Below are positions 5,788 to 58,420 of a stretch of DNA of 64,000 bases, piece after piece. Position numbers and translations under genes: made by a program. The stretch comes from Candidatus Heimdallarchaeum aukensis (GTDB lineage: Archaea; Asgardarchaeota; Heimdallarchaeia; Heimdallarchaeales; Heimdallarchaeaceae), in the NCBI GenBank assembly GCA_021513695.1, contig CP084166.1:2368001-2432000 (forward strand), given 5' to 3'. Positions within the stretch are counted from its first letter, which is position 1. Each line of letters starts with the position of its first letter. Below the pieces are notes generated by a model. The model did not search any database. It was given only the letters and a program-made list of their open reading frames with translations, and was not told the origin of the DNA.

Positions 5788-5912
5788 TCTTTTTGCATTC
5801 TCCTTTTTTTAAATCCTATTCTTTTTTCTTGTTAATTTCATTCTCCTTTTTACTCTCAATTACATGAAAAAAAAAGATAATGTTTTAAATTATTGATTTT
5901 TTCTTAATTTTA

Positions 5913-7433
5913 ATGGCAGATTTAAGACTTAAATACGGTACATCGCTAAATAAACAAAAAATGATGGAAATAACTATTGTAAGTATTATTGCACTATTTC
6001 TCTTTGTTTTGTCATTATATGTTAAAGATGCTTTTTGTTCTTGGTTCAATATGCAGAAGGGTGCAGGTTTTTACTGGTATTATGACCCCTCTAACCCTGA
6101 AGCTGTTTGGTACATAGAAGGATACGTTGATGCCTCATATTATTATCAACCTTATTTGTATGCATTTAGATATCAGAATTGGAATCCTTACTTGGGTGGA
6201 GAAGGACCATTGAATGGTTATGCTTATGGCCCCCTTTTTATATATGGTCTTTATTTTATTTCTCTTTTTGTTTCTATTGCAAATCCTTCTCTAACGAATT
6301 TTCAAGTGGTAATTGAATCAGTAAAATGGACACATATTGTTTTTGACTCATTATCGGTTGTTATGCTTTTTTTTATTGTTATCAATTTAGAAATAATGAA
6401 GTCAAAGAAATTTTCTAAATATTTAACTGGTGTTATAGCATCTGTTGTATATATTTTCATGCCCTTTAATCTGCTATACATTGATGCTTTAAGTCTTAAT
6501 ATTCCTCAAATGACTTTCTTTGTTCTTCTTGGAACATTTTTATTTAGAAAAGAAAAATATATTTTATCTTCATTTGCCATGACTTTGGGTTGGTTATCGA
6601 AACAGATGCCACTATTTATTGTTGTTCCTTGGTTTATAATACTCTGGAAAAAAGATGAAGACTTGAAAAAAGCACTTGTAGATTTCTTATTCCCTTTCTT
6701 TATTTTCACTTTGATATTCTCAATTCCTTGGTTAATATTGTCACCGGGAGGATATTTATTTAGAATATTTGGACCTGGAAAACCATTATCTATCGTTTCT
6801 TTGTCTTCCAAATATAATGGATATACTGTCACCTTGGCACATAGTTTTCTGAAATTAGGAAGCGAAACTTTAGCAAACATATATTTGTTTCTAAATAAGT
6901 ATATGATACCTTTTTTTGTTTTTTATATACTTACGTTATTAATTTGCTATTTTAATGCTTTAGATATATTTAATGACGAAAAACAATTTTACATTTATAA
7001 CACAGTAGTAATTCTTGTGTCTCATATATTCATTTCTAGAGGAATTTACAAATATTATGATGCATTTTTTTCTCCTTTCTTCATTCTTTTTCTTGTTTTA
7101 CTACTTTGGTCTTATTTTGACTTATGTAGATTCAACAATAGAACTTTATTGTATTCTTATTTTTTCGTTTCAATAATTTCCAGTTCAATTATTTTGTACT
7201 ATATTAATTGGGTAATAATCATCAAATCTAGATTCCTTCATCCTCTCTACTTGTTATTAATTTTTATTTTCATTTCTAGCTTTTTAGAAAGTAATTTTTA
7301 CTCGAGTCTAACCAAGTTTGAAAGCTACAGAATGATAATATTAGATATCAAAAAGATTTACTCTGATATAAAAAACTCTCTTCGAATACACAAAAAGGAA
7401 AAAGATCCGAAAATAAATCCGAATTTAGAATAA
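5913..7433 (+). CDS. Polytopic integral membrane protein, possibly a GT-C-fold glycosyltransferase (DUF2029-like)
   Basis: 506 aa, aromatic-rich, at least 10 predicted TM helices, N-terminal soluble loop rich in Y/W/P. Assignment by architecture only. Confidence 0.35.
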   Translation: MADLRLKYGTSLNKQKMMEITIVSIIALFLFVLSLYVKDAFCSWFNMQKGAGFYWYYDPSNPEAVWYIEGYVDASYYYQPYLYAFRYQNWNPYLGGEGPLNGYAYGPLFIYGLYFISLFVSIANPSLTNFQVVIESVKWTHIVFDSLSVVMLFFIVINLEIMKSKKFSKYLTGVIASVVYIFMPFNLLYIDALSLNIPQMTFFVLLGTFLFRKEKYILSSFAMTLGWLSKQMPLFIVVPWFIILWKKDEDLKKALVDFLFPFFIFTLIFSIPWLILSPGGYLFRIFGPGKPLSIVSLSSKYNGYTVTLAHSFLKLGSETLANIYLFLNKYMIPFFVFYILTLLICYFNALDIFNDEKQFYIYNTVVILVSHIFISRGIYKYYDAFFSPFFILFLVLLLWSYFDLCRFNNRTLLYSYFFVSIISSSIILYYINWVIIIKSRFLHPLYLLLIFIFISSFLESNFYSSLTKFESYRMIILDIKKIYSDIKNSLRIHKKEKDPKINPNLE

Positions 7434-7577
7434 AAATATGATTTTTCAATTATCATTTCTTAACTTTATACTTTCCCTTTTTTAAGAAATCTTCTATAAT
7501 AGCAATGTTTGACCTATATCAAAAAGAATTATAAAGTATAAAATTTCATTATTAGTAGTAAATAGTAAGGTATTCAA

Positions 7578-8138
7578 ATGAAGGAAACAAAAAATCGTGC
7601 TGTTTCTCCAGTTATAGGAACAATGCTAATGATTAGTTTAGTTATTGCGGCGAGTGTATTTGTGGCAATTTTTATTGGCAATATTAGAGTTCCTGCAATT
7701 GAAATTGGAGAAGAGACTCCCTCTCTTTATTCAGTAAACATTGATGTTATTTATTTTAACATAACTGATACTAATTCTAATGGACTAAATGATACACTTG
7801 TAGTAAAGTTTAATCTGGATTTAGATTCCCCAACAATTTATGTACAAGATATTGACATTTTGTTGCCTACAGGAAACTTACTTGATGATATAGTTCCATG
7901 GGTTATTATTGATTCAAATAGCTCTTGGAATTCAGACTTCTATGGATATTCTGTTTTGAATGGTAGTTTGAATGCTACATTTACTGTACAATGTTATGAC
8001 CTATCTAAGTCTGTAGGTGAAATTGCTCCAGGATATTCATTTTATTATTTAATTAAATATAACTATGTTTCTGTCAAAGGAAACCAATTGACTCTTATTT
8101 CTGATGTTTATCAATCAGAGTTAATAGAGACAAAATAA
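7578..8138 (+). CDS. Archaeal type IV pilin-like protein (class III signal peptide)
   Basis: N-terminus KNRAVSPVIGTMLMISLVIAASVF matches the archaeal prepilin/archaellin signal (R/K-G/A-V-S-P-V-I + hydrophobic helix). Secreted domain with N-glycosylation sequons. Confidence 0.65.
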   Translation: MKETKNRAVSPVIGTMLMISLVIAASVFVAIFIGNIRVPAIEIGEETPSLYSVNIDVIYFNITDTNSNGLNDTLVVKFNLDLDSPTIYVQDIDILLPTGNLLDDIVPWVIIDSNSSWNSDFYGYSVLNGSLNATFTVQCYDLSKSVGEIAPGYSFYYLIKYNYVSVKGNQLTLISDVYQSELIETK

Positions 8139-8214
8139 TATACAACATAATAATACATTTTTTTCTTTTTTCAAAACATTTTTTTAGATATTTGTGCTTA
8201 CTAATTTGAACATA

Positions 8215-8949
8215 ATGTCCCTTGAACCAAAACGAGCTTATAAAATAGTTTTAATTGGAGACCCAGAAGTAGGAAAAACTTCCATAAGAAGAAGATATAT
8301 GGGAAAAACGTTTAAAGGAGAATATTTGAAAACAATAGGTGCTGACTTTGCAGCACAAAAAGTAGAAATTGAAGATGAGGTCGTTTTATTAACAATATGG
8401 GATCTAGCTGGGCAAACTATCTTTCATGGAATGCGTTCTTCCTTTTACCAAGGATGTAAGTCTGCGTTAGTTGTTTTTGATGTAACAAATGTTGAAAGTT
8501 TGAACAATGTAGAAAAATGGACAGAAGAAGCTGTAACCTATGCAAAAAGTTCATTACAAGAGATTTATTTAATAGGCAATAAAATAGATTTGAAGAAAGA
8601 GAGAGTAGTTACAAAAGAACAAATAGACAAAAAAGTAAAACAATTGGAATCTTTAGTTAACTTTCCTATTAGAGTTTATGAAACATCTGCTCTTACAGGA
8701 GAAAATATCCAATCTTTATTTATGGATCTAAGTAGACGATTAATTATTAGTGATAACGTTAAATTTGAAGAAGAAATAGAAGCTAAACGTGCTCATGATG
8801 TTAAGAAAGAAAAAAGAAAAGAACCAGGTAAAGATGTTGATTATAAATCTAAAGATGACTTGAAAGAGATAATAAACCATATCGAGCTTCATGTTGAGAA
8901 AATAAATGACTTTATCAAATTATTGAAAAAACGATTAGATAAACTGTAA
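8215..8949 (+). CDS. Rab/Ras-like small GTPase with a charged, coiled C-terminal extension
   Basis: G1 GDPEVGKTS, switch I YLKTIGADF, G3 WDLAGQ, G4 GNKID, G5 ETSAL. ATG at 8215 is preferred over the GTG at 8194. K/E-rich C-tail, no CAAX. Confidence 0.8.
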   Translation: MSLEPKRAYKIVLIGDPEVGKTSIRRRYMGKTFKGEYLKTIGADFAAQKVEIEDEVVLLTIWDLAGQTIFHGMRSSFYQGCKSALVVFDVTNVESLNNVEKWTEEAVTYAKSSLQEIYLIGNKIDLKKERVVTKEQIDKKVKQLESLVNFPIRVYETSALTGENIQSLFMDLSRRLIISDNVKFEEEIEAKRAHDVKKEKRKEPGKDVDYKSKDDLKEIINHIELHVEKINDFIKLLKKRLDKL

Positions 8950-9030
8950 TTTTAAATCTCTTTACTTTGTAATAATCTTCAACAGTCATTCTTTTTTTAG
9001 AAAAAAGAAAAGATTTTGGATAAATTATTC

Positions 9031-10347
9031 TCATTCATCTAATTCTGTTAGTTTGACATATAGTCTCTTATAAAAATCTTGTACAGTTTGTAGAGATTTT
9101 AACTCAATATATTCATTTGCTCCATGAACATTTCCGCCAATTCCTCCAAATTCGATAGCAGGGATGTTCCTAGCGCTAAACCATCTTGAATCTGTAGCTC
9201 CTCCCATCTCAATTGTTTTTGTAGGTAATTCCAGTTCCTTAGCTACTTCAAGAGCTTTTTGAACTAATATTGAGGATTCAGACGTATTAACAGGTCCAAT
9301 ACTTCCTTCTGCTTTTATCTCTGCTTCAACATTGTGGTCTTTAAAGAAATCTTCAAAATATTTTTGAATTAAAGTATGATTATTACTCATAATTCTCAAG
9401 TCTAGTTGTACAAAGTAATGACCTTCTTTTTCAATAAAATAGTTGAAAGTAAGATTTATTCCATAATCACTATAATCTGATTCAATATCAACATTATCAA
9501 AGTCTCTTATAGAACGAAGAAATAAAGTTAAGTTTTTATCAATCTCAAAAGCTTCTCCTTCTTCATTTATCTTAACATAATCAATTGTAATTTCTGGTGG
9601 AATAACATTATTTTTTATGAAAACTCCGCTAATTGTTTGAACCAAGTCATCTTCTGAAAGTTTCTTAGATGCTGCAACAGCACAATGGATATCTAATTCC
9701 TTATTAAAGTATGCAGCATGCATAGTTCTATTTCCAGCTATTTCTGTTGTAAACTTCTCCGTATATAACTTCCCTTTTACTGTTTTCTTCTTTTTTGGAA
9801 TTTTTAAGTTTATAATGTACGGATTTCTACGTCTATTAATTATTTGTAAACCATTAGCATCACCATTTACTACATAATCTGGAACTAAATCATGTTTTTC
9901 TAATTGAGGAAGAAGTTCTCCTGCTCCAAAAGCTCCTCCTGATTCTTCGTCTAAATTAAAAGCAAAAATGATTGTGCCTTTCTCTTCTTTTGCAAAAAAT
10001 TCAGCCAGACTTAGCATTACAGCTACAGAACCCTTCATGTCTGCACTCCCTCGCCCATATCCTTTTTCGTCCCTTATTATAAAGGTAAATGGATCAGTTT
10101 CCCAATTTGGCCCCGGTGGTACAACATCACAGTGCCCTAAATATAACATCTTAGGGCTATCTCTTTTGATATAGGAAATAAGAGTCCAATAACCTTCTTT
10201 TACGTACATAACATTTTCGTATCCATATTCAGATAAGTAATTTCTTATAAAAATGAGTATGTCTTTACTAGGTTTGATTTTTTTTACAGGATTATTTATC
10301 GTATTGAATGAAACAAGTTTTTCAAGAATGGTTAAGTATGATTTCAT
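9031..10347 (-). CDS. M20 family metallopeptidase (ArgE/DapE/CPG2-like deacylase)
   Basis: GHCDVV, GRGSADMKG, EESGG and HGANEYIE metal-binding/catalytic motifs. Confidence 0.75.
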   Translation of the reverse strand: MKSYLTILEKLVSFNTINNPVKKIKPSKDILIFIRNYLSEYGYENVMYVKEGYWTLISYIKRDSPKMLYLGHCDVVPPGPNWETDPFTFIIRDEKGYGRGSADMKGSVAVMLSLAEFFAKEEKGTIIFAFNLDEESGGAFGAGELLPQLEKHDLVPDYVVNGDANGLQIINRRRNPYIINLKIPKKKKTVKGKLYTEKFTTEIAGNRTMHAAYFNKELDIHCAVAASKKLSEDDLVQTISGVFIKNNVIPPEITIDYVKINEEGEAFEIDKNLTLFLRSIRDFDNVDIESDYSDYGINLTFNYFIEKEGHYFVQLDLRIMSNNHTLIQKYFEDFFKDHNVEAEIKAEGSIGPVNTSESSILVQKALEVAKELELPTKTIEMGGATDSRWFSARNIPAIEFGGIGGNVHGANEYIELKSLQTVQDFYKRLYVKLTELDE

Positions 10348-10577
10348 AAATGGAACTTATTATGTAAATTTATTAGTTTTCTCCATCTTCTTGTGAACTT
10401 TTTAAACTACTCAAAATAATTTTCTCTAAAACCGGCAAAATATTAATTTCGGGAACATTGACTTATCTCTGGATAAAGTGAGAAAAAATGCGCATTTCGG
10501 ACTTTTCAGCACAATATTTTTATACTACTTTTTTTATCAATGAATTGCATACTACACGTGTGTAGGTGTTAAAAAAA

Positions 10578-11702
10578 ATGAATAAAAAAGGAATCTTTTT
10601 AATGGCATTGTTCTTACTTTCATTCCTTAGTGTAATGCCAACTAAGGCCGTAGTGGAAGATAAGAACACTGTTACCATTACATTGGGAACAGATGTCGCT
10701 GGTTATGTTGACAAAGGTGAACTCTATGTCGAAATTGACCGCGACGTCCTTCCAGATGGAAAAATCTTCTACACTGGAGATGAGCTATGGTTACACTTCT
10801 TCTATGATGTAGCCTATACAAACTTCTTCGGTGCAGCAGCTCCAAATGGAGGTTTCCAATGTGATGCATGGTTCTATGAAGAACCAGATGAAAACGGACT
10901 ATATAATGAAACAAGATTCAGTGGTATGCTAAACGGATATCTAGACGACTACGATTTAGGTCTAACAGATTTCGATCCTTACGACGGTAATACAACCCAA
11001 GAAATAACAATTACCTTAGAGGAAGGATGGCACACCTTTACTATTGTAGCTGCTGAATACATTTCAGACAACACTCATACCGAATTCCACTGGGAATGGG
11101 TAAAAGATCAAGTAAGCTTCTACGTTACTTCTGATACAACCTTAACAGAAGCTCCTGCAGTCGAATCATCCGGTAAGAAAGTCAAATTCGAATCAATCGC
11201 TAAAAACTCTGAAAACATGACCAACGGATTTGATTGGACAGATCCATGGACTGTTCGTCCAGTAGCTGAACCAGCTGCTTATTCAGACCTAGAAATATCA
11301 ACAAAGAAACTAGTAACCAAACTAACTGCTTATTACAACACTACATGGCAAGAATTAAACTTGACTGACTACGTTTGGGATACAGGTTTTGTTGATGAGT
11401 ATTCAATGGGTTATGGTGATGTTGCATGGTTCAATGCTGCTATAAACAACAGTTTAGTACAAGCAACTGAAGGAACTATTCCTTTGAACCTTGGAGTAAA
11501 CTACGTTGTATTTGCAGTAGTTGGATTCCACGCAGCTGATTTTGCAGCACTTTATGGAATACCCTTCCCAACAGTGCAATTCTCAAGCGTAATCTACAAG
11601 ATTGATGTAGTACCAGGACTAGGACCATCATACGGTATCCTTATAAGTGTCTCAATCTTTGGTCTAGTGGCTGCTTTAGGATTAAAGCGCTTCAGAAAAT
11701 AA
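10578..11702 (+). CDS. Secreted surface protein with a signal peptide and a C-terminal TM anchor plus basic tail
   Basis: N-terminus MNKKGIFLMALFLLSFLSVMPTKA. C-terminus GLVAALGLKRFRK. Atypical C-ending codon usage (TTC/TAC/AAC/GAC). Start chosen at the ATG 12 nt inside the track ORF. Confidence 0.55.
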   Translation: MNKKGIFLMALFLLSFLSVMPTKAVVEDKNTVTITLGTDVAGYVDKGELYVEIDRDVLPDGKIFYTGDELWLHFFYDVAYTNFFGAAAPNGGFQCDAWFYEEPDENGLYNETRFSGMLNGYLDDYDLGLTDFDPYDGNTTQEITITLEEGWHTFTIVAAEYISDNTHTEFHWEWVKDQVSFYVTSDTTLTEAPAVESSGKKVKFESIAKNSENMTNGFDWTDPWTVRPVAEPAAYSDLEISTKKLVTKLTAYYNTTWQELNLTDYVWDTGFVDEYSMGYGDVAWFNAAINNSLVQATEGTIPLNLGVNYVVFAVVGFHAADFAALYGIPFPTVQFSSVIYKIDVVPGLGPSYGILISVSIFGLVAALGLKRFRK

Positions 11703-11717: not shown

Positions 11718-13667
11718 ATGAACAAGAAACTATTTATTGCCCTTTTTGTAGTCTCTACAATGTTGGTGTCTAGTGTATATTCTGCTTCAACAAGTAAGGC
11801 TGCAGTAGAACCAATCGCCACTTTAACCTATAAAACAAACGGTGGAGGCTTCCGTCCCGATTATGGTCTTTACATTGCTCAATACTTAAGTGAATTAGGT
11901 ATTAAAGTTAATGTAAAGGTTGAGGAATGGATAGTCTTCGTAGGTACACTGTTAGTTACCTACGACTTTGACCTCGCTTTTGTAGGTTTAGTAGGTGGTG
12001 GTGCAGACCCTGATCTAACAGGTGTATACAACGAAAATGGTTCTCTAAACATGTTTGGTATAAACACCAAAATGCCTTATGGAGCAGAAAATGAAGAAAT
12101 GATGAAGGAAGGAGTCCTCATCATGGATCTTGAAGAAAGACAACAACACTATTATGAATGGCAACAATTAATCATGGACAAAATCTTGCCAATGTTACCA
12201 TTCTTCAGTCCTCGTTCATATGTTGCTAATTGGGCTACATTAGACGGATATGACAATCGTTGGGGTATAATTGACTCCTTACCATACATGGAGTTCACAG
12301 AATTACACGAAGGTCAAACATCCACTGAAGAATTCTATGATTCTGACGCTAAATGGAAAGAATTGAACCCATTGTTGCAAGATGATGCATCAAGTTCTTA
12401 CATTTCATCCTTAGTCATGGAACCATTAATGCAAATGACTCCTGACTTTGAACCAGTCAAAACTGGTATAGTTATCGATTGGGAACAAGATGAAACCAAT
12501 GAACTCTTATACAAATTCACTCTACGTGATGATGTCTACTGGAACCCATCCTTCAACATCACAGGCAGAGATAGTAGCTCTGATCCATTAGTTGATGAAG
12601 ATGGAAACATCGTAGATCCCAGCATCTTAATGGTTGGTGATAAAGGAGAGTTCAGTGATGGAACAAACCAACAAGTAACTGCTAAAGACGCAGTATTCAC
12701 ATTACTTGCTTGGGCAAACCCAATCACCAGTGAAGACGCTGATGTATACAAATGGATTCATGACATATGGGTTGATCCTGAAGATGAATTATCCTTCTGG
12801 ATAGAAATCGATGGTGATCCTGACACTCCTGAACCAGAAAATTATGCACCCTTCTGGTCAGCAATGACTCCAAGATTACTACCAGAATTCTTCTTAAACA
12901 CAACCAACACAACTGTTACATACTCCTCTGGTGGAGTACCAATGGTTGGTTTAGGAGAAGGTATTCTTGATACTCCTCAATGGAAGACCTACAGTACTTC
13001 CGCATTTGGTTGTGGTAAGTACATGTTAGACTACTACGTTGAGAACTCAATTACAGTCTTACAAGCTTCTCCATTCTGGTTTGGTGTAGGAGCCATTGAC
13101 GGAACAGAACAAGATCTAGATATCAAAACCTTCAACATTCGTGTTATTCCAGATCAAACATCTGCATTAGCAGAATTCAAAGCTGGAAAACTCGATATCA
13201 TGGGTATGACTGCCTTCCCAGAGGAAAGAAAGGAGATGGAAACCGATCCTAGATTCGAAGTTCAATCAGCTCTAAGAAGCTATGTTAACTTCATGGGATT
13301 CAACCTCAGAAGACCATTCATCGGTGGAGACGACAACTATGTCTTCTTAACTGAACCTGGTTATGAGGAATATACCAAAGCTCTCGCTGTCAGAAAAGCT
13401 ATTGCATACGCAATCGACAGAGAAGAAATCAACAACGTTCTTCATGATGGTGAATACTTGATCTCTCACAGCGTTATTTATCCAGTACAAGCATTCTGGT
13501 ATTATAACGACATTATCAAGTACAACCATGATCTCGATACAGCTATTGCATGGCTTAAGAGAGCAGGAGTATATAAGGAAGCTGAAGTTACAACAACTCC
13601 ATTACCAATAATTGGTGTTGTTGCAGCAATCATGTCCTTTGTTTTACTCAGAAGGAAGAGAAACTAA
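11718..13667 (+). CDS. ABC-transporter family 5 (OppA/DppA-like) solute-binding protein homolog, C-terminally membrane anchored
   Basis: Signal peptide. SBP_bac_5-like segment KALAVRKAIAYAIDREEINNVL. C-terminal TM followed by RRKRN. Same atypical codon usage as the upstream gene. Confidence 0.55.
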   Translation: MNKKLFIALFVVSTMLVSSVYSASTSKAAVEPIATLTYKTNGGGFRPDYGLYIAQYLSELGIKVNVKVEEWIVFVGTLLVTYDFDLAFVGLVGGGADPDLTGVYNENGSLNMFGINTKMPYGAENEEMMKEGVLIMDLEERQQHYYEWQQLIMDKILPMLPFFSPRSYVANWATLDGYDNRWGIIDSLPYMEFTELHEGQTSTEEFYDSDAKWKELNPLLQDDASSSYISSLVMEPLMQMTPDFEPVKTGIVIDWEQDETNELLYKFTLRDDVYWNPSFNITGRDSSSDPLVDEDGNIVDPSILMVGDKGEFSDGTNQQVTAKDAVFTLLAWANPITSEDADVYKWIHDIWVDPEDELSFWIEIDGDPDTPEPENYAPFWSAMTPRLLPEFFLNTTNTTVTYSSGGVPMVGLGEGILDTPQWKTYSTSAFGCGKYMLDYYVENSITVLQASPFWFGVGAIDGTEQDLDIKTFNIRVIPDQTSALAEFKAGKLDIMGMTAFPEERKEMETDPRFEVQSALRSYVNFMGFNLRRPFIGGDDNYVFLTEPGYEEYTKALAVRKAIAYAIDREEINNVLHDGEYLISHSVIYPVQAFWYYNDIIKYNHDLDTAIAWLKRAGVYKEAEVTTTPLPIIGVVAAIMSFVLLRRKRN

Positions 13668-14299: not shown

Positions 14300-15067
14300 T
14301 TAACTCTTTATTCTTATTTTTATCCTCTTAGAGCACCAATTTATTATGCTTTTTGCAATAATAAACTTCTGAAATTTTTTGCCAATCTTCTCTTTCGTGA
14401 GAGTGTTTACTTTTGAGTATTTTCCTATTTTTTCTCCAAAGTCATACCCAAAAAGGATAACTTTTTTTATTTCTGAATTTACGGCAAAACAAACAGCTCT
14501 ATCACCATCTGTAAAACCTAAAAAATTTCTAAAATTTCCTAATTCTTCTGTTTGTGTTGAAAATAACACGTTTCCTGCCTTTATTAGTTTGGGTAGATAT
14601 TTCTTTGCTTGTTCAAGATTATCCCCGTGAATATGAACAATCATAGTAGAACCGAGTCTTTGGGCTTCTATTTGATCTTCTACGCAACCGTCTAAATCAG
14701 AAATAATAACTTCAGGAATCAGGTTCTGTTCTAATAAAAATGTTGTAGCCCCATCAACTGAAATAAGAACGGTGTTAGTAACATTTTTTGATTTTATTTC
14801 TTTAATTTTTTTTGCTGTTTCATTTGATAAACTATTTCCAGGGGCTATAATTATTGCTGTTTTTCTTTTTAATTCATTTACTAACTCTTCAACCCTTAAA
14901 TTAGGTTTGAATAAGTTATCAATATCCTTCACAGCATTTAAGTCGCTTTGTGGAGAAATATTTAGAAAATCACATATCGCAGGATACCAATGTTCTAGCC
15001 AAGTGGAAAGAGAAAAATCTAGTTTCTCAAGTTGAAGAAACAATGTATTTTCAGTCTTAAAAATCAT
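14300..15067 (-). CDS. DUF115 / MptE-like protein (archaeal 6-hydroxymethylpterin diphosphokinase family)
   Basis: Segments APGNSL ... ISDLDG ... HIHGDN resemble the MptE/Maf (PF01973) family. Recalled from memory, not searched. Confidence 0.45.
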   Translation of the reverse strand: MIFKTENTLFLQLEKLDFSLSTWLEHWYPAICDFLNISPQSDLNAVKDIDNLFKPNLRVEELVNELKRKTAIIIAPGNSLSNETAKKIKEIKSKNVTNTVLISVDGATTFLLEQNLIPEVIISDLDGCVEDQIEAQRLGSTMIVHIHGDNLEQAKKYLPKLIKAGNVLFSTQTEELGNFRNFLGFTDGDRAVCFAVNSEIKKVILFGYDFGEKIGKYSKVNTLTKEKIGKKFQKFIIAKSIINWCSKRIKIRIKS

Positions 15068-16832
15068 CTAAATCTTCCTTTGTTATCTTTCTTTTGCTCT
15101 CTAGCTTAAGAAGAGCAGTGTTATATCTACTAACTACATCATTGAAGTTTATAAAACCAATGACTTTCTTATCATTTTTTAAGGATACTACTGGCATCCC
15201 TTCAATATTATTGTCTTTTAACTTTGCGATGACTACTCTTAATGTATCACTTGGTTTAACGGTTATTACGTTTTCAGTCATTACTTCGTGAACATACTTT
15301 TTATTAGAAGAAAAACCTCTTGAGAAATCTGAACTCGCAATAATTCCAACAAGATTATCTTCTTCGTCAAAAACAGATATGGCTGAAACTTTGTGCAGAT
15401 ATAGTAGTGAAATTGTATTCTTAAGTAGGTCATTCTTTTTTACTTTGGGAAAAACAGTATCCATTGCTTCAGAAACTTTTATTCCTTCCAAGATGTCAGT
15501 ATTGCTTATTTTTTTCCTTAATATGACTTCTTTGCTTTGTACTTGTCCAGTATATAGACTGAAATCCATGGAAACTACAAAAGCTGCAGCATTTGATAGA
15601 ATTATTGGAATAACAAGAGAAGGAAATCCTAACATTTCTAAAACAATAAGCATAGATGCAATCGGAGTTTTTGTAGTGGCTGCATGCATTGCAGACATTC
15701 CTACTATAATAAATGCAATATAATTGACGCCAGGAAAGATCTTAGAATAAACAGCCCCCAAAACAGCTCCTGTTACTAGCGATGGACCCATGACTCCTCC
15801 AGATGCACCCATTCCAACACATGTGGAAGTAACAATAATTTTACCAAGAAAAAGAAGAAGTAGAATAGAAAAACCTATATTTTCACCTTTCTCTAAAAGA
15901 AAATTTATCGCTTGAAAACCTGTTCCTTGTAAAGATAGACCTTCTGGTAATCCTAAACTGAACAAAAAGACGATAAGAGCTGTAATTGTCATTCCAATAA
16001 AAGGGAGAATATATGACCATTTTATGTATCTATTAACTAAATTTGTAAGGGATTTATATAGTAATGAAAAACCTATTCCTGAAATTCCAGAAATAACTCC
16101 TAATAATAAGAACAAAAGAGAATTAACAATTGTAAGCTGTACTGGAGCTGTTTCAATATCTAAATAAACAGGGTGGGAGTTTAGTGCTGTCAAAATTGCC
16201 ATTGAAACTAAAAGAGAAATTGCACTTCCCAAAAGAGCAGGAAGAAATACTGTTTCATCAAGATCGTGTTTGTATGGAACTTCAGAAGCAAAAACTGTTC
16301 CACCTAAAGGAGAACGAAAAACTGCTGCAGTGCAAGCTGCTGCTCCTATTGTTATAGCATGTGTAGCATCATCTTGGTTGAATTTCATTTTTTCTCCTAA
16401 AGAATAAGCCATCGCTGCTCCTATTGTAACAGATGGTCCTTCTCTTCCTGCAGGAGCATTTACTCCCAAAGTGAGAAAACTTGCTACAAACTTTGACCAA
16501 ATAACTCGAATAGGAATTTTCTTTCCCGTGTTTTTATGTTCTAAAATATAGGAAATTCCTGCTCCTCGCACTTCATCAAACCCAAAATAAAGGAAGAGTG
16601 ATATTAATGCTCCAGTTAATGGAAAAGAAATCAAAATAGAAATTTGAGACAACCATTTTTGAGTATTAACTACAAGGCTTGCAAACAAACCCATTACAAC
16701 TCCACTTATAATACCAGTAATGATTGCAAAGGGAAACCATTTTTTGCTATATTTCCAATATTTGATAAAAACCTCTTTAAAATTCCTAAAAAATCTCTTA
16801 TTTTCTTTATCATTTATTGCTTTTTTTTTCAC
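15057..16832 (-). CDS. ClC family chloride channel/transporter with a C-terminal CBS pair
   Basis: GREGP selectivity motif (NAPAGREGPSVTIGAAMA). Several GxxxP/GG motifs, about 11 TM helices, C-terminal CBS domains. Confidence 0.8.
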   Translation of the reverse strand: MKKKAINDKENKRFFRNFKEVFIKYWKYSKKWFPFAIITGIISGVVMGLFASLVVNTQKWLSQISILISFPLTGALISLFLYFGFDEVRGAGISYILEHKNTGKKIPIRVIWSKFVASFLTLGVNAPAGREGPSVTIGAAMAYSLGEKMKFNQDDATHAITIGAAACTAAVFRSPLGGTVFASEVPYKHDLDETVFLPALLGSAISLLVSMAILTALNSHPVYLDIETAPVQLTIVNSLLFLLLGVISGISGIGFSLLYKSLTNLVNRYIKWSYILPFIGMTITALIVFLFSLGLPEGLSLQGTGFQAINFLLEKGENIGFSILLLLFLGKIIVTSTCVGMGASGGVMGPSLVTGAVLGAVYSKIFPGVNYIAFIIVGMSAMHAATTKTPIASMLIVLEMLGFPSLVIPIILSNAAAFVVSMDFSLYTGQVQSKEVILRKKISNTDILEGIKVSEAMDTVFPKVKKNDLLKNTISLLYLHKVSAISVFDEEDNLVGIIASSDFSRGFSSNKKYVHEVMTENVITVKPSDTLRVVIAKLKDNNIEGMPVVSLKNDKKVIGFINFNDVVSRYNTALLKLESKRKITKEDLDDF

Positions 16833-17031
16833 ACTTCTAACTTGAAAAGAACTCTTTTATTTTTTTCTCCATCTTATAGTTGAGAAAAATTTCTTCTTAA
16901 ATTCCTTTAGTTAGGAAAACAAATGTAAAATTGATAAACTATTATTATAAATATTTAATTATATATAACGATTAATAGTTATCTAAAATTTAATATATTT
17001 GCTTAAAATCGAGAGTTATAGGGGATTAGTG

Positions 17032-18804
17032 ATGAAATTGCGATTGCCACATGTGAATTTTAAGTTACCGAGTTATACAAAAAAATGGTTGCTATTAGAT
17101 GTATTAGGAATAATTATTGGTATTATTGGAGGGTTAGGAGCAGTATTCTTTCGTTTTATTTTAAAGTACCTCAAGATCTTCTTTTTTGATATCTTGTTAC
17201 CATTAGTTACAATAAATGTTGGTGGATTTAATTTAGGTTATATATTTCTTCCAATAATTGGGGCTTTAATTGTAGGGCCTGTTGTTATGTTTTTTGCTCC
17301 TGAAACTAAAGGACATGGTGTTCCTGAAGTGATGGAATCTGTAGCATTAAAAGGAGGGGAGATAAGAAAAAGAGTTGCTTTTCTAAAAGTGGCTGTTTCT
17401 TCTATAACTATCGGTTCTGGAGGCAGTGCGGGAAGAGAAGGACCAATTGCCCAAATAGGTGCAACACTTGGCTCATTCTTTGGAGGACTATTCAAACTTG
17501 ATCCACAACATAAAAAGCTGATGGTTGTTTGCGGTCTATCTGCTGGTATAGCTGGGACATTTAATGCTCCACTTGGCGGAGCGTTATTTGGAATGGAAGT
17601 GCTGTTGAGAGGAATAGGATTATTTAACGCAATGCCAGTAATTTTGTCTTCTGTAGTTTCTGTAGGTGTAGCTTCAGTGTTGATTCCGATAGCATTAGGT
17701 GAAGAAGTAGGACCTGCTTTTATTATAGATATAGCAACATCATGGAATCCTGCAGAACTGCCTTTATATATTGTTTTAGGAATAGTATTTGGATTATTGT
17801 CAATATTATGGGTAAAAGGATTCTACTTTATAGAGGATATTTTTGACAAACTAAAAATTTATCCTCATCTAAAACCAGCAATTGGAGCCTTTTTTACAGG
17901 ATTAATTATTGTCTTCTTCCCAACATATGGTATCGCTGGAGTTGGTTATGAAGGGATAGAACTTGCTCTTGTTGGAGAAATAACTTTGGGTTTATTAATA
18001 GCTCTAGGTTTTCTCAAAATTCTAGCAACAGGATTCTCAATTGGTTCGGGAGGAAGTGGAGGAATCTTTGCTCCTAGTTTATATATAGGCGCTATGTTTG
18101 GAACTGCAATAGGCATGGTTTTTAAATTAATTTTTCCAGGAACTGTGTCTAATTGGACAACATATTCATTAGCTGGTATGGGCGCTTTATTTGCAGGTGC
18201 AGCACAAGCTCCAATAAATGTAATAATAATGATTCCAGAGATGACCAACGATTATTTATTGATACCACCAATTGCTATTGCTTCATTCATCAGTTTTTTC
18301 ATTAATTGGATATTCATGAAAGGGACTTCAATTTACACAATAAAATTAGAAAGAAGAGGAGTTAAAATTAGAATGGGTAGTCCTTTCATTTTAGAATTAG
18401 TGAAAAACGAAGAAATAATGACAAAAGATGTGGTTACTCTCCAAGAAAAGTTTCCTGTTTCAATCCTAGAGCTATACTTTGAAGAACATCAACACCATGG
18501 ATATCCAGTGCTAAATGAAGAAAAGAAACTTGTGGGAGTTGTAACCTTGGGAGACTTGCAAAAGTTAGAAGAGGAAGAAAGAAAAAACAAAATCATTGGA
18601 GATATTTGTTCAAGAGAGCTTGTGACCGTTAAAGCAGAAGAAACAGTCTCTGAAGCTTTAAGAAAAATGAATGAGTTTGATATTGGTAGAGTAATTGTTG
18701 TAGATAGTGAAGACCCTAATAAAATAAAAGGAATAGTTACGAGAACTGATATAATGAATGCTTATCGTATTGCTTCACAAAACCCGGCACTTACAACACT
18801 TTAA
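17032..18804 (+). CDS. ClC family chloride channel/transporter with a C-terminal CBS pair (second, divergent copy)
   Basis: GSGGSAGREGPIAQIG, GGIFAPSLYIGAMFG, C-terminal CBS pair. ATG at 17032 follows an AGGGGA SD-like motif; the track start is a TTG at 16999. Confidence 0.8.
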   Translation: MKLRLPHVNFKLPSYTKKWLLLDVLGIIIGIIGGLGAVFFRFILKYLKIFFFDILLPLVTINVGGFNLGYIFLPIIGALIVGPVVMFFAPETKGHGVPEVMESVALKGGEIRKRVAFLKVAVSSITIGSGGSAGREGPIAQIGATLGSFFGGLFKLDPQHKKLMVVCGLSAGIAGTFNAPLGGALFGMEVLLRGIGLFNAMPVILSSVVSVGVASVLIPIALGEEVGPAFIIDIATSWNPAELPLYIVLGIVFGLLSILWVKGFYFIEDIFDKLKIYPHLKPAIGAFFTGLIIVFFPTYGIAGVGYEGIELALVGEITLGLLIALGFLKILATGFSIGSGGSGGIFAPSLYIGAMFGTAIGMVFKLIFPGTVSNWTTYSLAGMGALFAGAAQAPINVIIMIPEMTNDYLLIPPIAIASFISFFINWIFMKGTSIYTIKLERRGVKIRMGSPFILELVKNEEIMTKDVVTLQEKFPVSILELYFEEHQHHGYPVLNEEKKLVGVVTLGDLQKLEEEERKNKIIGDICSRELVTVKAEETVSEALRKMNEFDIGRVIVVDSEDPNKIKGIVTRTDIMNAYRIASQNPALTTL

Positions 18805-40183: not shown

Positions 40184-40945
40184 GGTAGTGTCTAGTTTTC
40201 TTCCGACAAAATATTTGTGGGGACTCTAATAGTAAGATATGAAAACACAAAAACTATCTACTCTTTTTAAGAGATGCAGAGTCCCCAAAAAAATAATAAT
40301 AAAAGCTATTTATGAATATATTGGTTCAAAGAATGGTTTGAGGACAGTAGCATGGAAGAATGGTTTAACGCATCAAACATTATGGTATTGGGTAAAGAAG
40401 TTCAGGCTCTTTAGGGAAAGTTTACATAGAGTTGTAGCAGAGAGAGGGGGAATACCAGAGATTATAGTAGTAGATGAAACAGAGATTAGGACCTCTCAAG
40501 GCTCAATATATCTGTGGTTCGCGTTAGATCCTTACAACAAGACTTTACTGGGTTTTAGTATTACTAAAGGACGGAGTAATCTTGAATGTTTACTAACTTT
40601 CCGTTATTGGTTCAAATGTTGGGGTTTTAAGCCCCGTATTGTCGTTACAGATGCAGGAGTATGGTATCCTGTCTTACTTCGTCTCGGTATCAAAATCTCT
40701 GTTATCAAAGGTGGTTTACGCTCCTATATTGAACGTTTTAATGCTACTCTTAAGAGTTATCGTTGGTTTCATTCTATTCTCCACTGCACTTGTCCTATCC
40801 GTGCCGTCTATGGCTCTACTCATCTTTCTGGTTTCCTTACTCTCTTTATGCTCCATTATAATTTCGTTCGTCCTCATCAGAGCTTGGGACATCCTCCCCT
40901 TAGTTCCTTTTTACCTAGGAGGTGGTATAAAAACTAGACACTACC
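40184..40945 (+). mobile_element. Intact ~762 bp single-ORF insertion sequence (IS6/IS240-like DDE transposase) with 16 bp terminal inverted repeats and a 9 bp target-site duplication
   Basis: IR-L GGTAGTGTCTAGTTTT (~40184-40199). IR-R AAAACTAGACACTACC (~40930-40945). Flanking direct repeat CTTGGAGGA at ~40175-40183 and ~40946-40954. Internal GC higher than flanks. Confidence 0.8.
40239..40937 (+). CDS. DDE transposase (IS6/IS240-like, rve-type catalytic core)
   Basis: VVDETEI (D), VVTDAGVWY (D), SYIERFNATLK (E). C-terminal YNFVRPHQSLG integrase-core signature. Spacing resembles IS26 Tnp. Confidence 0.75.
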   Translation: MKTQKLSTLFKRCRVPKKIIIKAIYEYIGSKNGLRTVAWKNGLTHQTLWYWVKKFRLFRESLHRVVAERGGIPEIIVVDETEIRTSQGSIYLWFALDPYNKTLLGFSITKGRSNLECLLTFRYWFKCWGFKPRIVVTDAGVWYPVLLRLGIKISVIKGGLRSYIERFNATLKSYRWFHSILHCTCPIRAVYGSTHLSGFLTLFMLHYNFVRPHQSLGHPPLSSFLPRRWYKN

Positions 40946-50614: not shown

Positions 50615-50995
50615 TTAAAAATCATAAACCCAATTTGTTTCGGGAATGTACAGCAAATTTAAGATAAGTGTCCATACTGCTATAGTTACAATAAAAAACT
50701 GAAAGATTGCAGAAGTATAAAATGATTTAGTTTTAAGTCCAGTATTTTTGTTTCTATAAATTAAAAACCAAACTGAAGATGTTAATAGAAATACTCCAAG
50801 TAATGTAAGTCCTGCTGGCCAGTTTCTAAAATTAGTTACACCAAAGATTATTCCTGTAACTATTCCCACTAAAACTTTTGAATAGTACATTTTATTTGTT
50901 AAAGGCATTTCTTTAATCTTTTCTAACCAGTTGACGGGATTCAAATTGTTTTTAACTTTATTCTTAATTTTGTTCATATCAATATTCAAACTCAT
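50615..50995 (-). CDS. Small membrane protein, hypothetical
   Basis: 126 aa, 3 TM helices. Confidence 0.35.
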   Translation of the reverse strand: MSLNIDMNKIKNKVKNNLNPVNWLEKIKEMPLTNKMYYSKVLVGIVTGIIFGVTNFRNWPAGLTLLGVFLLTSSVWFLIYRNKNTGLKTKSFYTSAIFQFFIVTIAVWTLILNLLYIPETNWVYDF

Positions 50996-54567: not shown

Positions 54568-55305
54568 TCACTTGAATTTTTTTACGAGTTGTTTTAGAAT
54601 TGTTTGTATTGTTTCTATTTTTTCTTCTATTTTCTCCACTCTTTTAACAAGCTTATTGAATTCGTCAGCTGATACTTCTACTTCTCCAGAGACTGATTCC
54701 ATCATCGATTCTTTAATATCTATAATTCCAGGAGCAAGTTCTTTTTTCTTTGTTACTTTAACGTTATTTGCTTCGAGAAGTGTGTAAGCCAAGAAATCAA
54801 ACGTTTCTTGGATATTTTGTCCTGTTAATGCCGATGTTTCACTATAGTAGAAGTTTATTCCCGTTTCAGTCATTAGTCTCTGACAAAATTCTATAGCCAT
54901 TTTCTGTGATACTCTCCTATTTTCTGGAGGAAGATCGATCTTATTAGCTATTACAAAGTAAACTAGAATTCCAGAATTTGAACCTTCAATACTCTCTTCT
55001 AGCCATGTTCGTAGATTAGTCATTGTTTGTTGATCTTGGATATCAAATACCAACAAAGCAGCTATAGCTCCTTTATAAAAAGTTGACCTAACAGCTGAAT
55101 AGCTATCTTGTCCTGCAAGATCCCATATCTGAAAAGTGATGTCATTGTCTTCTACTTTTACTTTTTTTGAAGCAAAGTCAGCCCCAATTGTTTTAAGATA
55201 GTCTCCTGTAAATCCTTTTCCCATATATCTCTCTCTAATAGAGGTCTTTCCTACTGCTCCATCTCCAGCCAATACAATTTTAAAATTCCATTTTTTTCCT
55301 GTCAA
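54568..55305 (-). CDS. Rab/Ras-like small GTPase with a C-terminal coiled-coil extension
   Basis: G1 GDGAVGKTS, switch I YLKTIGADF, G3 WDLAGQ, G4 ANKID, G5 ETSAL. TTG start. K/E-rich tail, no CAAX. Confidence 0.8.
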   Translation of the reverse strand: MTGKKWNFKIVLAGDGAVGKTSIRERYMGKGFTGDYLKTIGADFASKKVKVEDNDITFQIWDLAGQDSYSAVRSTFYKGAIAALLVFDIQDQQTMTNLRTWLEESIEGSNSGILVYFVIANKIDLPPENRRVSQKMAIEFCQRLMTETGINFYYSETSALTGQNIQETFDFLAYTLLEANNVKVTKKKELAPGIIDIKESMMESVSGEVEVSADEFNKLVKRVEKIEEKIETIQTILKQLVKKFK

Positions 55306-55309
55306 GATT

Positions 55310-55996
55310 TCACCCTTGTTGTTTGTATTTAGCTAATTCTTCTTCTAGCTCATCTATTCTTCTCTGAGCTTCAAGTAATCTCTTTTGGAATGTTTCTCCT
55401 ACTTCCTGCTGAGTTCTTTCAAAGTGTGCTTTTGCTTCTTCTAACTCTTTCCTCATTTTTTCTCTTTCCTCACGAGCTTTCTTTATTTCTTCACTCTCAC
55501 GAACTGTTTGAACAGCCTTTTTGAGCAATGTTTCCAAGTCATCTTTTGAAACATCAAAATTTGAGGAAGTAAGCATCTTTAGAGCGTTAAATTCATCAGC
55601 AGAGATTGTAGGTCTACTTTTCATTAGGTCTTCAACCTTCTCTTGTAGAGCTTTTTTCTCGATAAGTAGATCAGAAACCTGTGCTTTCAGTTGTCTATTT
55701 TCTTCACTTAATTGAGTAGAATTTTGTGTTTCAATATCAAGTGATCTTCTAAGATGTTCAATCTCATCAGAACTTTCTCCTAATTGCTTTATGTATCGAA
55801 CTAGCATAACTATATATTCACGCAAAAGAGGATGGATTAAATGCCAATATTGATGGATTTCTCGTTCAATATCAGATAATCTCGGATCTTTCATGTTTGG
55901 AGGGAGTTTTACAAAAACAGGGTTTTCAACATCAATTTGGGGATAATACTCTGGAATATAATTGTAGATTGTTTCTCCTTTATACTTTTTAAACAT
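55310..55996 (-). CDS. Coiled-coil protein encoded immediately upstream of the small GTPase, 5 bp gap (possible regulator or effector)
   Basis: 228 aa. N-terminal globular about 90 aa, then a long heptad-rich E/K/L/Q region. Confidence 0.4.
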   Translation of the reverse strand: MFKKYKGETIYNYIPEYYPQIDVENPVFVKLPPNMKDPRLSDIEREIHQYWHLIHPLLREYIVMLVRYIKQLGESSDEIEHLRRSLDIETQNSTQLSEENRQLKAQVSDLLIEKKALQEKVEDLMKSRPTISADEFNALKMLTSSNFDVSKDDLETLLKKAVQTVRESEEIKKAREEREKMRKELEEAKAHFERTQQEVGETFQKRLLEAQRRIDELEEELAKYKQQG

Positions 55997-57576: not shown

Positions 57577-57817
57577 ACAATAGTGACTAGATAGCTTTCT
57601 GATTCATTGATTTTTTCTGGATATGTTAGTAATAAGGCTCAAGAGACTAAAACGCAGATATTTCTGAATTCATATTTGATTAAACTTTCGTTCTATTTAT
57701 TAAAAAAATAACAAATTCTTGTGTAAATTAACCATGTGTATATATAATTCAACGTTCTTATCTGAATCTAAAAGTTTAAGAGTTTCTAAACTAGATATTT
57801 TCGTAGACAAAGTGAAA

Positions 57818-58420
57818 ATGATGAAAACGCTTTTCGATAAATCAAAATTCGATATGAAAGTAGAAGAAATTATGACAAAAGGGGTAATTTCTGTTGCCCC
57901 AAAAGCAAGTGCAGAAGTTTGTGCCAAACTAATGATCGATAATAAGATTGGCTCTGTCGTAGTAATAGACAGTAGTAAAAAAATTCTAGGTATCATTACC
58001 AAAGAAAATCTAATTAAACATGTTATAGCACAAAATGCAAGTCCAGAAGAAGTAAAAGCTTTTGAGATAATGTCTGCGCCAGTAATTACAGCTAGAGAGA
58101 CAATAACTATTTCAGAAGCTATGCGAAAAATGTTTAAAGAGAATATCCGCCACTTGGTGATTACTGATTCACAAGGATTTGTAATAGGAATATGTACAGA
58201 TACAGATCTGTTTAAAGTAGTTCCCACTTTAATTCTGATAGAAAAAGAATATTTGCAACTGATGAGAAATGAAGAGGAAGATACTAAAAATGAAGAATTA
58301 GTATCAGGATATTGTGATGACTGTGGAGAATATTCAGATTCACTAATGGAAATTGATGGCCAATTTAAGTGCCCAAGATGTGTCCCAGAAGATATAAACA
58401 TTATGCCACCTGAAATATAG
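57818..58420 (+). CDS. CBS-pair protein with a C-terminal zinc ribbon
   Basis: Two CBS repeats (VEEIMTKGVISVAP…, IMSAPVITARE…HLVITDSQGFVIGICTDTD). C-terminal CDDCGE…CPRC. ATG at 57818 is preferred over the upstream TTG. Confidence 0.6.
   Translation: MMKTLFDKSKFDMKVEEIMTKGVISVAPKASAEVCAKLMIDNKIGSVVVIDSSKKILGIITKENLIKHVIAQNASPEEVKAFEIMSAPVITARETITISEAMRKMFKENIRHLVITDSQGFVIGICTDTDLFKVVPTLILIEKEYLQLMRNEEEDTKNEELVSGYCDDCGEYSDSLMEIDGQFKCPRCVPEDINIMPPEI

Follow-up and report, generated by a model that had tools for sequence, protein, structure and literature searches.

In Candidatus Heimdallarchaeum aukensis, a gene for a Rab-like small GTPase lies directly downstream of a gene for a type IV pilin-like protein. 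Both are located in a 64,000-nucleotide (nt) stretch of genomic DNA of approximately 30% G+C, which is referred to here as the window. The pilin-like gene (7578–8138, + strand) encodes 186 amino acids (aa), and the GTPase gene (8215–8949, + strand), delimited from the open reading frame (ORF) listing and by direct reading, encodes 244 aa. The domain matches of both ORFs are strong and far above chance, and both genes are already annotated in public records. An earlier note on this DNA had raised the possibility of a pilin-GTPase transcript that would pair a surface filament subunit with a cytoplasmic switch. We consider it likely that these are instead two independent genes, which became neighbors through local rearrangement inside a collinear block conserved in Heimdallarchaeaceae, and judging from the sequences compared, their pairing is probably incidental.

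Genes of an operon are expected to share a strand and a short gap, to lack promoter- or terminator-like signals between them, and to keep their adjacency and orientation among relatives. The pilin-like gene and the GTPase do share a strand and a short gap, but signals of both kinds are found inside the gap, and neither adjacency nor orientation is conserved. The gap measures 76 nt from the pilin-like stop codon to the GTPase ATG, or 55 nt if an upstream in-frame GTG at 8194 is used, in agreement with the co-directional spacing of 55–77 bp described previously. The GTG was rejected as the start of the GTPase; every ortholog in the alignment begins MSLEPKRAYK, so the ATG at 8215 is taken to be the true start.

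Gene order was compared across neighborhoods from ten related lineages (the window together with L011/L012; L001, L003/4, L005/6, L007, L008, L009, L010, L014 and L015). The shared collinear block starts with an MrfA-like helicase gene, an ORF of ~140 aa, sometimes a Ras-like gene of ~303 aa, and a gene for a polytopic membrane protein of 470–570 aa. It continues with the pilin-like gene, sometimes an M20 peptidase gene, the GTPase, a surface protein of 350–410 aa and an SBP_bac_5 protein. Within this block, the pilin-like gene and the GTPase are adjacent on one strand in three of the ten lineages: the window with the 94%-identical L011/L012, L007, and L008, the gaps in these relatives being 66–73 nt. 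The M20 gene lies between them in five lineages, with all three genes on one strand in L001, L005/6 and L010 and the GTPase on the opposite strand in L003/4 and L014. The two genes are convergent in L009, which brings to three the lineages in which the GTPase is on the strand opposite to the pilin-like gene, and in L015, the source of the most divergent ortholog, the neighbors of the GTPase are unrelated. Because the nearest distinct relatives, L003 (68%) and L001 (67%), both carry the M20 gene between the pilin-like gene and the GTPase, and the window order equals that of L003 with the M20-GTPase pair inverted, the adjacency seen in the window is most simply explained as a derived rearrangement. 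Since the collinearity also takes in functionally unrelated genes (helicase, peptidase, CLC channels, PTPS, ETF and FG-GAP/TSP3), general synteny and shared ancestry suffice to account for the proximity of the two genes.

In the window, the M20 peptidase gene (Peptidase_M20, E=1.7e-31) follows the GTPase on the opposite strand (9031–10347, − strand), and its position and orientation vary among loci. When 8139–10565 is compared with L001, L003, L005 and L009, the GTPase and M20 genes appear as a small rearrangement-prone unit; M20 is found in some loci and not in others, and inversions involve the GTPase by itself or both genes. A search for inverted repeats that could account for the inversions returned AT-rich low-complexity matches and no convincing recombination repeats. 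One 16-nt inverted pair flanks the GTPase gene (8161–8176 and 8996–9011), but it consists of T-run and A-run tracts, and it was rejected as a pair of recombination sites and read as terminator-like signals.

Transcription of the two genes was assessed from sequence and cross-genome comparison. A putative promoter element of the pilin-like gene, resembling a transcription factor B recognition element and TATA box (BRE/TATA), lies at 7520–7540 (+ strand; CAAAAAGAATTATAAAGTAT), and a comparable cAAAAg with TTATAAA or TTAAATA is found ~40–60 nt before the pilin-like start codon in orthologous loci. The GTPase has a BRE/TATA-like element of its own (8172–8191, + strand; CAAAACATTTTTTTAGATAT), which ends 23 nt before the ATG. 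This element is found in all eight aligned loci as cAAAAgA followed by TTAAAATAA or TTTTTAGATA, ending ~23–27 nt before the ATG, and it is kept whichever gene lies upstream, be it the pilin-like gene, the M20 peptidase gene or a divergently oriented gene. In every ortholog it lies ~25–45 nt before the ATG, and in form and placement it agrees with an archaeal BRE/TATA promoter whose transcript has a very short leader or is leaderless.

Between the pilin-like stop codon and this element, the gap holds an oligo-T tract resembling archaeal terminators (T7-C-T6; 8158–8171, + strand), 20–33 nt past the stop. Beyond the GTPase, a T7 run (8992–8998) followed by an A-rich run forms a putative bidirectional terminator (8992–9012) between the convergent GTPase and M20 genes. 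Within the 60 nt past the stop codons of the window, sense-strand runs of at least six T have a density of 9.2 per kb, versus 0.93 per kb within coding sequence. Such a run is present in none of the 11 tight same-strand gene pairs (gap of 36 nt or less) versus 15 of the 18 pairs with a gap of 70 nt or more, and the pilin-GTPase gap contains three. The RNA of 8125–8225 folds no better than shuffled sequence (z=+1.0). Given the conserved GTPase element and the oligo-T tracts of the gap, the pilin-like gene and the GTPase are probably separate transcription units; the pilin-like transcript would most likely end at the T7-C-T6 tract, and that of the GTPase would most likely start from a BRE/TATA promoter of its own and have a very short leader or no leader. 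The earlier note had named separate transcription as the outcome that would speak against a joint transcript, and this outcome is the probable one.

These results bear directly on the possibility of a true operon, in which the GTPase would control assembly, placement or secretion of the filament subunit. The shared strand and the 76-nt gap are what an operon would be expected to show, the same arrangement recurs in L011/L012, L007 and L008, and there is a conceptual precedent in the bacterium Myxococcus, whose type IV pili have their polarity controlled by the Ras-like GTPases MglA and SofG. However, the arrangement is missing from seven of the ten lineages, the GTPase carries its own conserved promoter-like element, and the gap differs from the tight operons of the window in its T runs. 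In addition, the scanned ORFs of the window include no pilus machinery, and a GTPase paralog of the same architecture has no pilin neighbor. An operon is, in our view, very improbable.

Several observations nevertheless weigh against complete independence of the two genes. They are no more than ~1.5 kb apart in nine of the ten lineages, and several of these nine have the second Ras-like gene beyond the membrane protein, so that a loose functional link between pilin-like gene and GTPase is possible. Some read-through from the pilin-like gene into the GTPase may occur, in particular in L007 and L008, whose gaps (66–67 nt) hold only a T4 run. A motif search de novo with a Gibbs sampler on 36 upstream regions of the window yielded a weak pattern (A-rich, then AT-rich) whose best match fell on the proposed elements, which it scored at only 1.6 and 3.1. 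Because this motif is weak, the promoter assignment rests on cross-genome conservation; a regular-expression scan for BRE/TATA in the window gave too few independent matches to be informative.

Members of the Ras superfamily are expected to have a Ras-type fold and the five sequence motifs G1–G5. The GTPase has both. Its G domain (residues 1–177; 8215–8745, + strand) was delimited by Pfam Ras, PDB matches, the G boxes and an AlphaFold2 (AF2) model built from 55 homologs. Pfam matches were obtained to Ras (E=1.8e-43), Roc (E=7.9e-29) and Arf (E=8.2e-14). All five G boxes previously described are indeed present (GDPEVGKT, T40, DLAGQ, NKID and TSAL), as is switch I with the sequence YLKTIGADF, and the key residues (G15, G20, K21, T22, T40, D63, G66, Q67, N122, K123, D125, S158 and A159) are invariant in 55 of 55 relatives. 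Since the catalytic Gln67 of DxxGQ, Thr40 and the P-loop are invariant, the protein should bind and hydrolyze GTP and is predicted to be a working cytoplasmic nucleotide switch of the Rab-like type.

Similarity to Rabs over Ras, Rho, Ran and Arf was judged on the top matches by sequence and by structure. The top PDB sequence match is the Thorarchaeota Rab 7ezb (E=2.5e-33, residues 7–179), followed by Ypt1, Rab1, Rab6, Rab7, Rab8, Rab10 and Rab35; the other 59 matches listed are all Rab or Ypt proteins. The AF2 model has a confident Ras-type fold, with a predicted local distance difference test score (pLDDT) mostly above 90 in the G domain. When this model was compared with PDB structures by Foldseek, 49 of the top 50 matches were named Rab or Sec4, the remaining one (2il1) being an unnamed predicted human GTPase, and template modeling (TM) scores normalized to the target were 0.80–0.92. 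The claim that the G motifs belong to a Rab-like GTPase of Ras fold is thus borne out. Of the 27 positions in the Rab family (RabF) motifs, 14 are shared with Ypt1, as read from the PDB-sequence alignment with RabF5 corrected by eye. Agreement varies by motif: IGADF 4/5, LLTIW 3/5, IFHGMR 1/6, FYQGC 2/5 and VVFDVT 4/6, against the references IGVDF, KLQIW, RFRSIT, YYRGA and LVYDIT, respectively. Residues F45, W62 and Y78 stand at what we take to be the positions of the Rab hydrophobic triad.

The cysteines that are geranylgeranylated at the C terminus of Rabs are missing, as had been noted earlier. The sole Cys of the GTPase is C81, and no Cys occurs within the last 15 residues in any of the 55 relatives, which leaves no prenylatable cysteine. 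Because agreement with RabF is partial and prenylation cysteines are absent from 55 relatives, the protein is classified as an Asgard Rab-like GTPase and not as a Rab in the strict sense. Asgard Rab-like GTPases are a well-known eukaryotic signature, and this protein is an ordinary member of the known ones. A protein recorded from Ca. H. aukensis is 100% identical to it. Orthologs of ~245 aa and 52–69% identity are present in many Heimdallarchaeaceae assemblies, together with a more divergent one (P0070; 232 aa, 46% identical), and the GTPase and its orthologs carry the NCBI names 'GTP-binding protein' or 'Rab family GTPase'. An MglA-type identity was rejected: G3 is the canonical DLAGQ, the best matches are all Rabs, and neither an adjacent roadblock/MglB-type gene nor pilus motor genes were found in the window. 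The likeness to MglA and SofG is one of concept only, a type IV pilus system with which a GTPase of the Ras superfamily is genetically linked.

The closest characterized relative, the Thorarchaeota Rab (Thor-Rab; 7EZB, 7EZD and 7EZE; Tran et al. 2024, PMC10933270), resembles the window GTPase in its Ras-fold G domain, DxxGQ, switch I of the form TIG-x-DF and lack of C-terminal cysteines, and 15 of the 27 RabF positions are identical (PDB alignment, RabF5 by eye). Unlike Thor-Rab, the Heimdallarchaeal family has a conserved extension of 65–75 aa, made up of a disordered linker and a heptad helix. Thor-Rab and the Rab-likes of Lokiarchaeon MK-D1 are described as having no C-terminal extension, and this extension has been proposed to arise in eukaryogenesis; for Thor-Rab, the same study found no homologs of Rab escort protein or of Rab geranylgeranyl transferase (PMC10933270). 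Eukaryotic Rabs (Ypt1/Rab1, Rab8, Rab10, Rab6 and Rab7) share with the window GTPase a layout of G domain, variable flexible linker and C-terminal localization element, as well as RabF1 (IGADF, 4/5) and a good match at RabF5 (VVFDVT). They differ from it at RabF3 (1/6) and RabF4 (2/5) and in ending with a lipid in place of a heptad helix. The Heimdallarchaeal tail is a counter-example to extension-free Asgard Rabs in layout, although not in chemistry, since there is no lipid.

The charged tail of about 70 aa claimed in the earlier note was found to comprise residues 177–244 (68 aa, 51% K/R/D/E). Its first part, delimited by the AF2 model and the ortholog alignment, is an extension of helix alpha5 followed by a charged disordered linker (residues 177–213; 8743–8853, + strand): alpha5 is lengthened to ~195 (helix 165–195), and residues 194–212 have a pLDDT below 50. 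The second part, delimited by AF2 and heptad statistics, is a terminal heptad-repeat helix (residues 214–243 plus stop codon; 8854–8949, + strand), modeled as helix 214–243 with a pLDDT of ~75–82. Linker columns are unconserved among orthologs, whereas the pattern of the terminal helix is kept and E224 is nearly invariant among relatives. In the window GTPase, 89% of heptad a/d positions are L/I/V/M/F, compared with 17% elsewhere in the helix, and a similar pattern is found over the last 32 residues in 50 of the 55 relatives (78–100% at a/d compared with 4–26% elsewhere). The helix has few aromatics and is rich in Glu/Asp and Lys, with a net charge of approximately −2 to +2. Because of its narrow a/d stripe, scarce aromatics and near-neutral charge, the terminal helix probably forms a coiled coil rather than an in-plane membrane helix. 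A point to be held against this reading is that coiled-coil formation is deduced only from the heptad pattern and a model of the monomer.

The alternative is that the helix is an in-plane amphipathic membrane anchor, a lipid-free stand-in for Rab prenylation. It is strongly amphipathic in most of the family (hydrophobic moment ~1.3–1.7, Kyte-Doolittle scale), it sits at the extreme C terminus past a flexible linker, where eukaryotic Rabs carry their prenylated end, and it often ends in a K/R-rich stretch. However, its hydrophobic residues are confined to the heptad stripe with 3-4-3-4 spacing, and the mixture of acidic residues with Lys is typical of coiled coils and unfavorable for anionic membranes. 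Also, the tail of the window paralog gives weak Pfam matches of leucine-zipper type (CLZ), and that paralog is tightly coupled to a coiled-coil protein. An anchor of this kind is therefore considered unlikely. The GTPase has a flexible charged linker of low conservation and a heptad helix of ~30 residues at its end where Rabs have a prenylated C terminus; with the coiled coil as the preferred reading, this helix would most likely localize or assemble the GTPase by pairing with itself or with a coiled-coil partner. That the tail as a whole is a lipid-free localization device of Heimdallarchaeal Rab-likes is a tentative proposal, to which we give somewhat less than even chances. Descriptions of a coiled coil or C-terminal extension on Asgard Rab-likes were not found in the literature searched; this search was limited and leaves novelty unproven.

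The same tail occurs on a second Rab-like GTPase of the window (54568–55305, − strand; 245 aa), which is 40% identical to the first over its full length, including the tail of linker and heptad helix. These are the two GTPases among the ~51 genes of the window. Since this paralog has no pilin neighbor and yet has the same tail, the tail is a family trait, independent of the pilin-like gene. The paralog lies 4 nt downstream of a gene for a coiled-coil protein of 228 aa (55310–55996, − strand). This tight pair is also found in L016 and L017, with gaps of 11–13 nt and a partner 61–64% identical, and is thus kept in all three genomes examined, with a partner of 228–229 aa and a gap of 4–13 nt. As a candidate for an operon, or for a GTPase and its partner, the paralog with its coiled-coil neighbor is much better than the pilin pairing. 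For Asgard Rab-likes in general, genome layout rarely helps with localization or effector pairing, and the small GTPase genes of Lokiarchaeon MK-D1 are generally not in operons with regulators (PMC10933270).

The upstream gene does encode a class III signal peptide, as had been claimed. The N terminus of the pilin-like protein, MKETKNR-A-VSPVIGTMLMISLVIAASVFVAIFIG (MKETKNR-A-VSPVIG, then a hydrophobic helix), fits this motif, which is kept as K/R-[AG]-[VI]-S-[PE]-V in all eight pilin-like orthologs. With a score of 31.3 bits (E=3.7e-07), the protein exceeds the 25.2-bit cut-off of Pfam Pilin_N (PF07790), it also matches NCBIfam TIGR02537, 'archaellin/type IV pilin N-terminal domain' (E=1.6e-06), and a 94%-identical copy bears the NCBI name 'archaellin/type IV pilin N-terminal domain-containing protein'. 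Its AF2 model (mean pLDDT 85.5) has a helix at 11–34, a short low-confidence linker and a confident Ig-like beta-sandwich at 55–180. The class III signal peptide and the hydrophobic helix that define the type IV pilin/archaellin superfamily are thus both present, and archaeal type IV pilins and archaellins likewise have an N-terminal hydrophobic helix followed by a beta-sandwich. Archaellins are among the best structural matches (full-length TM 0.32–0.40), but a Foldseek search with the model gave no match at E of 1e-3 or below, and no specific pilin or adhesin family was indicated. Unlike known pilins and archaellins, it has a globular domain whose significant relatives, by structure or sequence, are confined to a very small Heimdallarchaeaceae family, which forms 15 representative clusters among 1.84 billion proteins; nine near-full-length matches have E below 1e-20, and all are 186–195 aa long. 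The architecture is that of the type IV pilin/archaellin superfamily, with no specific relative.

Five N-x-S/T sequons occur in the pilin-like protein of the window, and only one or two in more distant orthologs. A further difference from known pilins and archaellins lies in the genomic setting. A Pfam scan of window ORFs of at least 120 aa found no assembly ATPase (PilB/ArlI), platform protein (PilC/ArlJ) or prepilin peptidase (PibD/FlaK), and pilus assembly genes were likewise absent from the fetched neighborhoods of relatives. The pilin-like gene product is best viewed as a lineage-specific member of the superfamily that would be secreted or membrane anchored.

Directly upstream of the pilin-like gene is a gene for a polytopic membrane protein of 506 aa (5913–7433, + strand). 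A gene of this kind lies directly 5' of the pilin-like gene, on the same strand, in eight of the nine lineages that have the block. Its orthologs are 48–64% identical, compared with 36–54% for the pilin-like orthologs, and the family, of which 105 homologs were collected, is essentially restricted to Heimdallarchaeaceae and annotated 'hypothetical'. The window protein has no Pfam match, even at a relaxed threshold, and its profile has no match among PDB sequences. Distant relatives give near-full-length sub-threshold matches to PMT_2 (P0237–P0239, E=1.6e-4 to 1e-3) or a weak match to ALG3 (P0241), and our best guess is that the membrane protein is a divergent glycosyltransferase of GT-C type. 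The steady genomic partner of the pilin-like gene is this upstream, probably GT-C-like membrane protein and not the GTPase. In several relatives, a Ras-family protein of ~301–304 aa with an N-terminal extension of ~110 aa is encoded between the ~140-aa ORF and the membrane protein (L005:1129–2043, L007:2564–3475, L008:2564–3475, L009:9156–10061 on the − strand, and L010:1230–2135); it is absent from the window (5788–5912), L001, L003 and L014.

Downstream of the GTPase and M20 genes are genes for a protein of 378 aa with no known family (10566–11702, + strand) and an SBP_bac_5 solute-binding protein (11718–13667, + strand). Both proteins begin with a signal peptide and carry a hydrophobic C-terminal anchor with basic residues after it. 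The two genes are 15 nt apart, they occur as a pair in all related loci, and they are probably an operon of anchored surface proteins.

Such neighbors raise the possibility of a loose cell-surface module, in which the probable GT-C glycosyltransferase, the pilin-like protein, one or two small GTPases and the two membrane-anchored surface proteins would not be co-transcribed, but the GTPases would regulate glycosylation, export or positioning of surface proteins. The block is kept in nine of the ten lineages over 52–69% GTPase identity, the second Ras-like gene of ~303 aa adjoins the membrane protein in L005, L007, L008, L009 and L010, and the signal peptides and anchors of the downstream 378-aa and SBP_bac_5 proteins fit such a module as well. 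Collinearity, however, covers the unrelated MrfA-like helicase and M20 peptidase and, farther out, CLC channels, PTPS and ETF, which points to phylogenetic inertia; moreover, loss of the second Ras-like gene from the window, L001 and L003 was accompanied by no other change, no association is left in L015, and GTPase orientation changes freely. We regard a loose module as improbable, and its more specific form, in which one or two coiled-coil-docked Rab-likes control glycosylation, export or positioning of the pilin-like protein and the adjacent anchored proteins, as a long shot. Independence of the two genes, with proximity inherited through the block, is the reading we retain.

Other genes of the window were also inspected. 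No tRNA genes were found and no Rfam families were matched across the whole window. Beside the NFACT gene is a membrane ORF of 126 aa (50615–50995, − strand) that reaches 17.8 bits against EMC6, which is below the threshold, and its counterpart L016:387–764 is above the Pfam EMC6 cut-off (E=4.3e-06, 27.5 bits); it may be a homolog of ER membrane complex subunit 6 in Heimdallarchaeaceae. Because this ORF overlaps the listed TTG start of NFACT at 50931, the true NFACT start is probably further downstream. A protein of 763 aa (29–2320, + strand) has borderline matches just over the cut-offs to CARDB (24.5 bits) and TRAP_beta (translocon-associated protein beta; 23.1 bits), which may reflect similarity of Ig-like fold only. 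An ORF of 232 aa (40239–40937, + strand) has weak matches to the integrase cores rve and rve_3 under the Pfam cut-offs and may be a transposase remnant. Two genes for CLC chloride channels, each with CBS domains, lie side by side and divergent (15057–16832, − strand; 16999–18804, + strand). Two ORFs of 233 aa overlap almost fully on opposite strands (57700–58401, − strand; 57719–58420, + strand), and since a domain match (CBS pair, E=3.1e-26) was obtained for the + strand ORF alone, the one on the − strand is probably its shadow.

The main result is negative, in that the pilin-GTPase pairing most likely reflects local gene shuffling and gives no functional clue. A useful by-product is that the pilin-like protein has a steady partner, probably a divergent glycosyltransferase of GT-C type. 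Were the improbable surface module real, a eukaryote-type small GTPase would be directing traffic to the envelope of an archaeal cell. The most useful leads, although of modest interest, are the tail and the pairing of the paralog with its coiled-coil protein. If the tail does serve for lipid-free localization, a long C-terminal targeting extension would predate eukaryotes, contrary to what has been suggested (PMC10933270). Conserved as it is on at least two paralogous families of Heimdallarchaeal Rab-likes, it offers a testable candidate for how non-prenylated Asgard Rab-likes may be localized or paired with their effectors.

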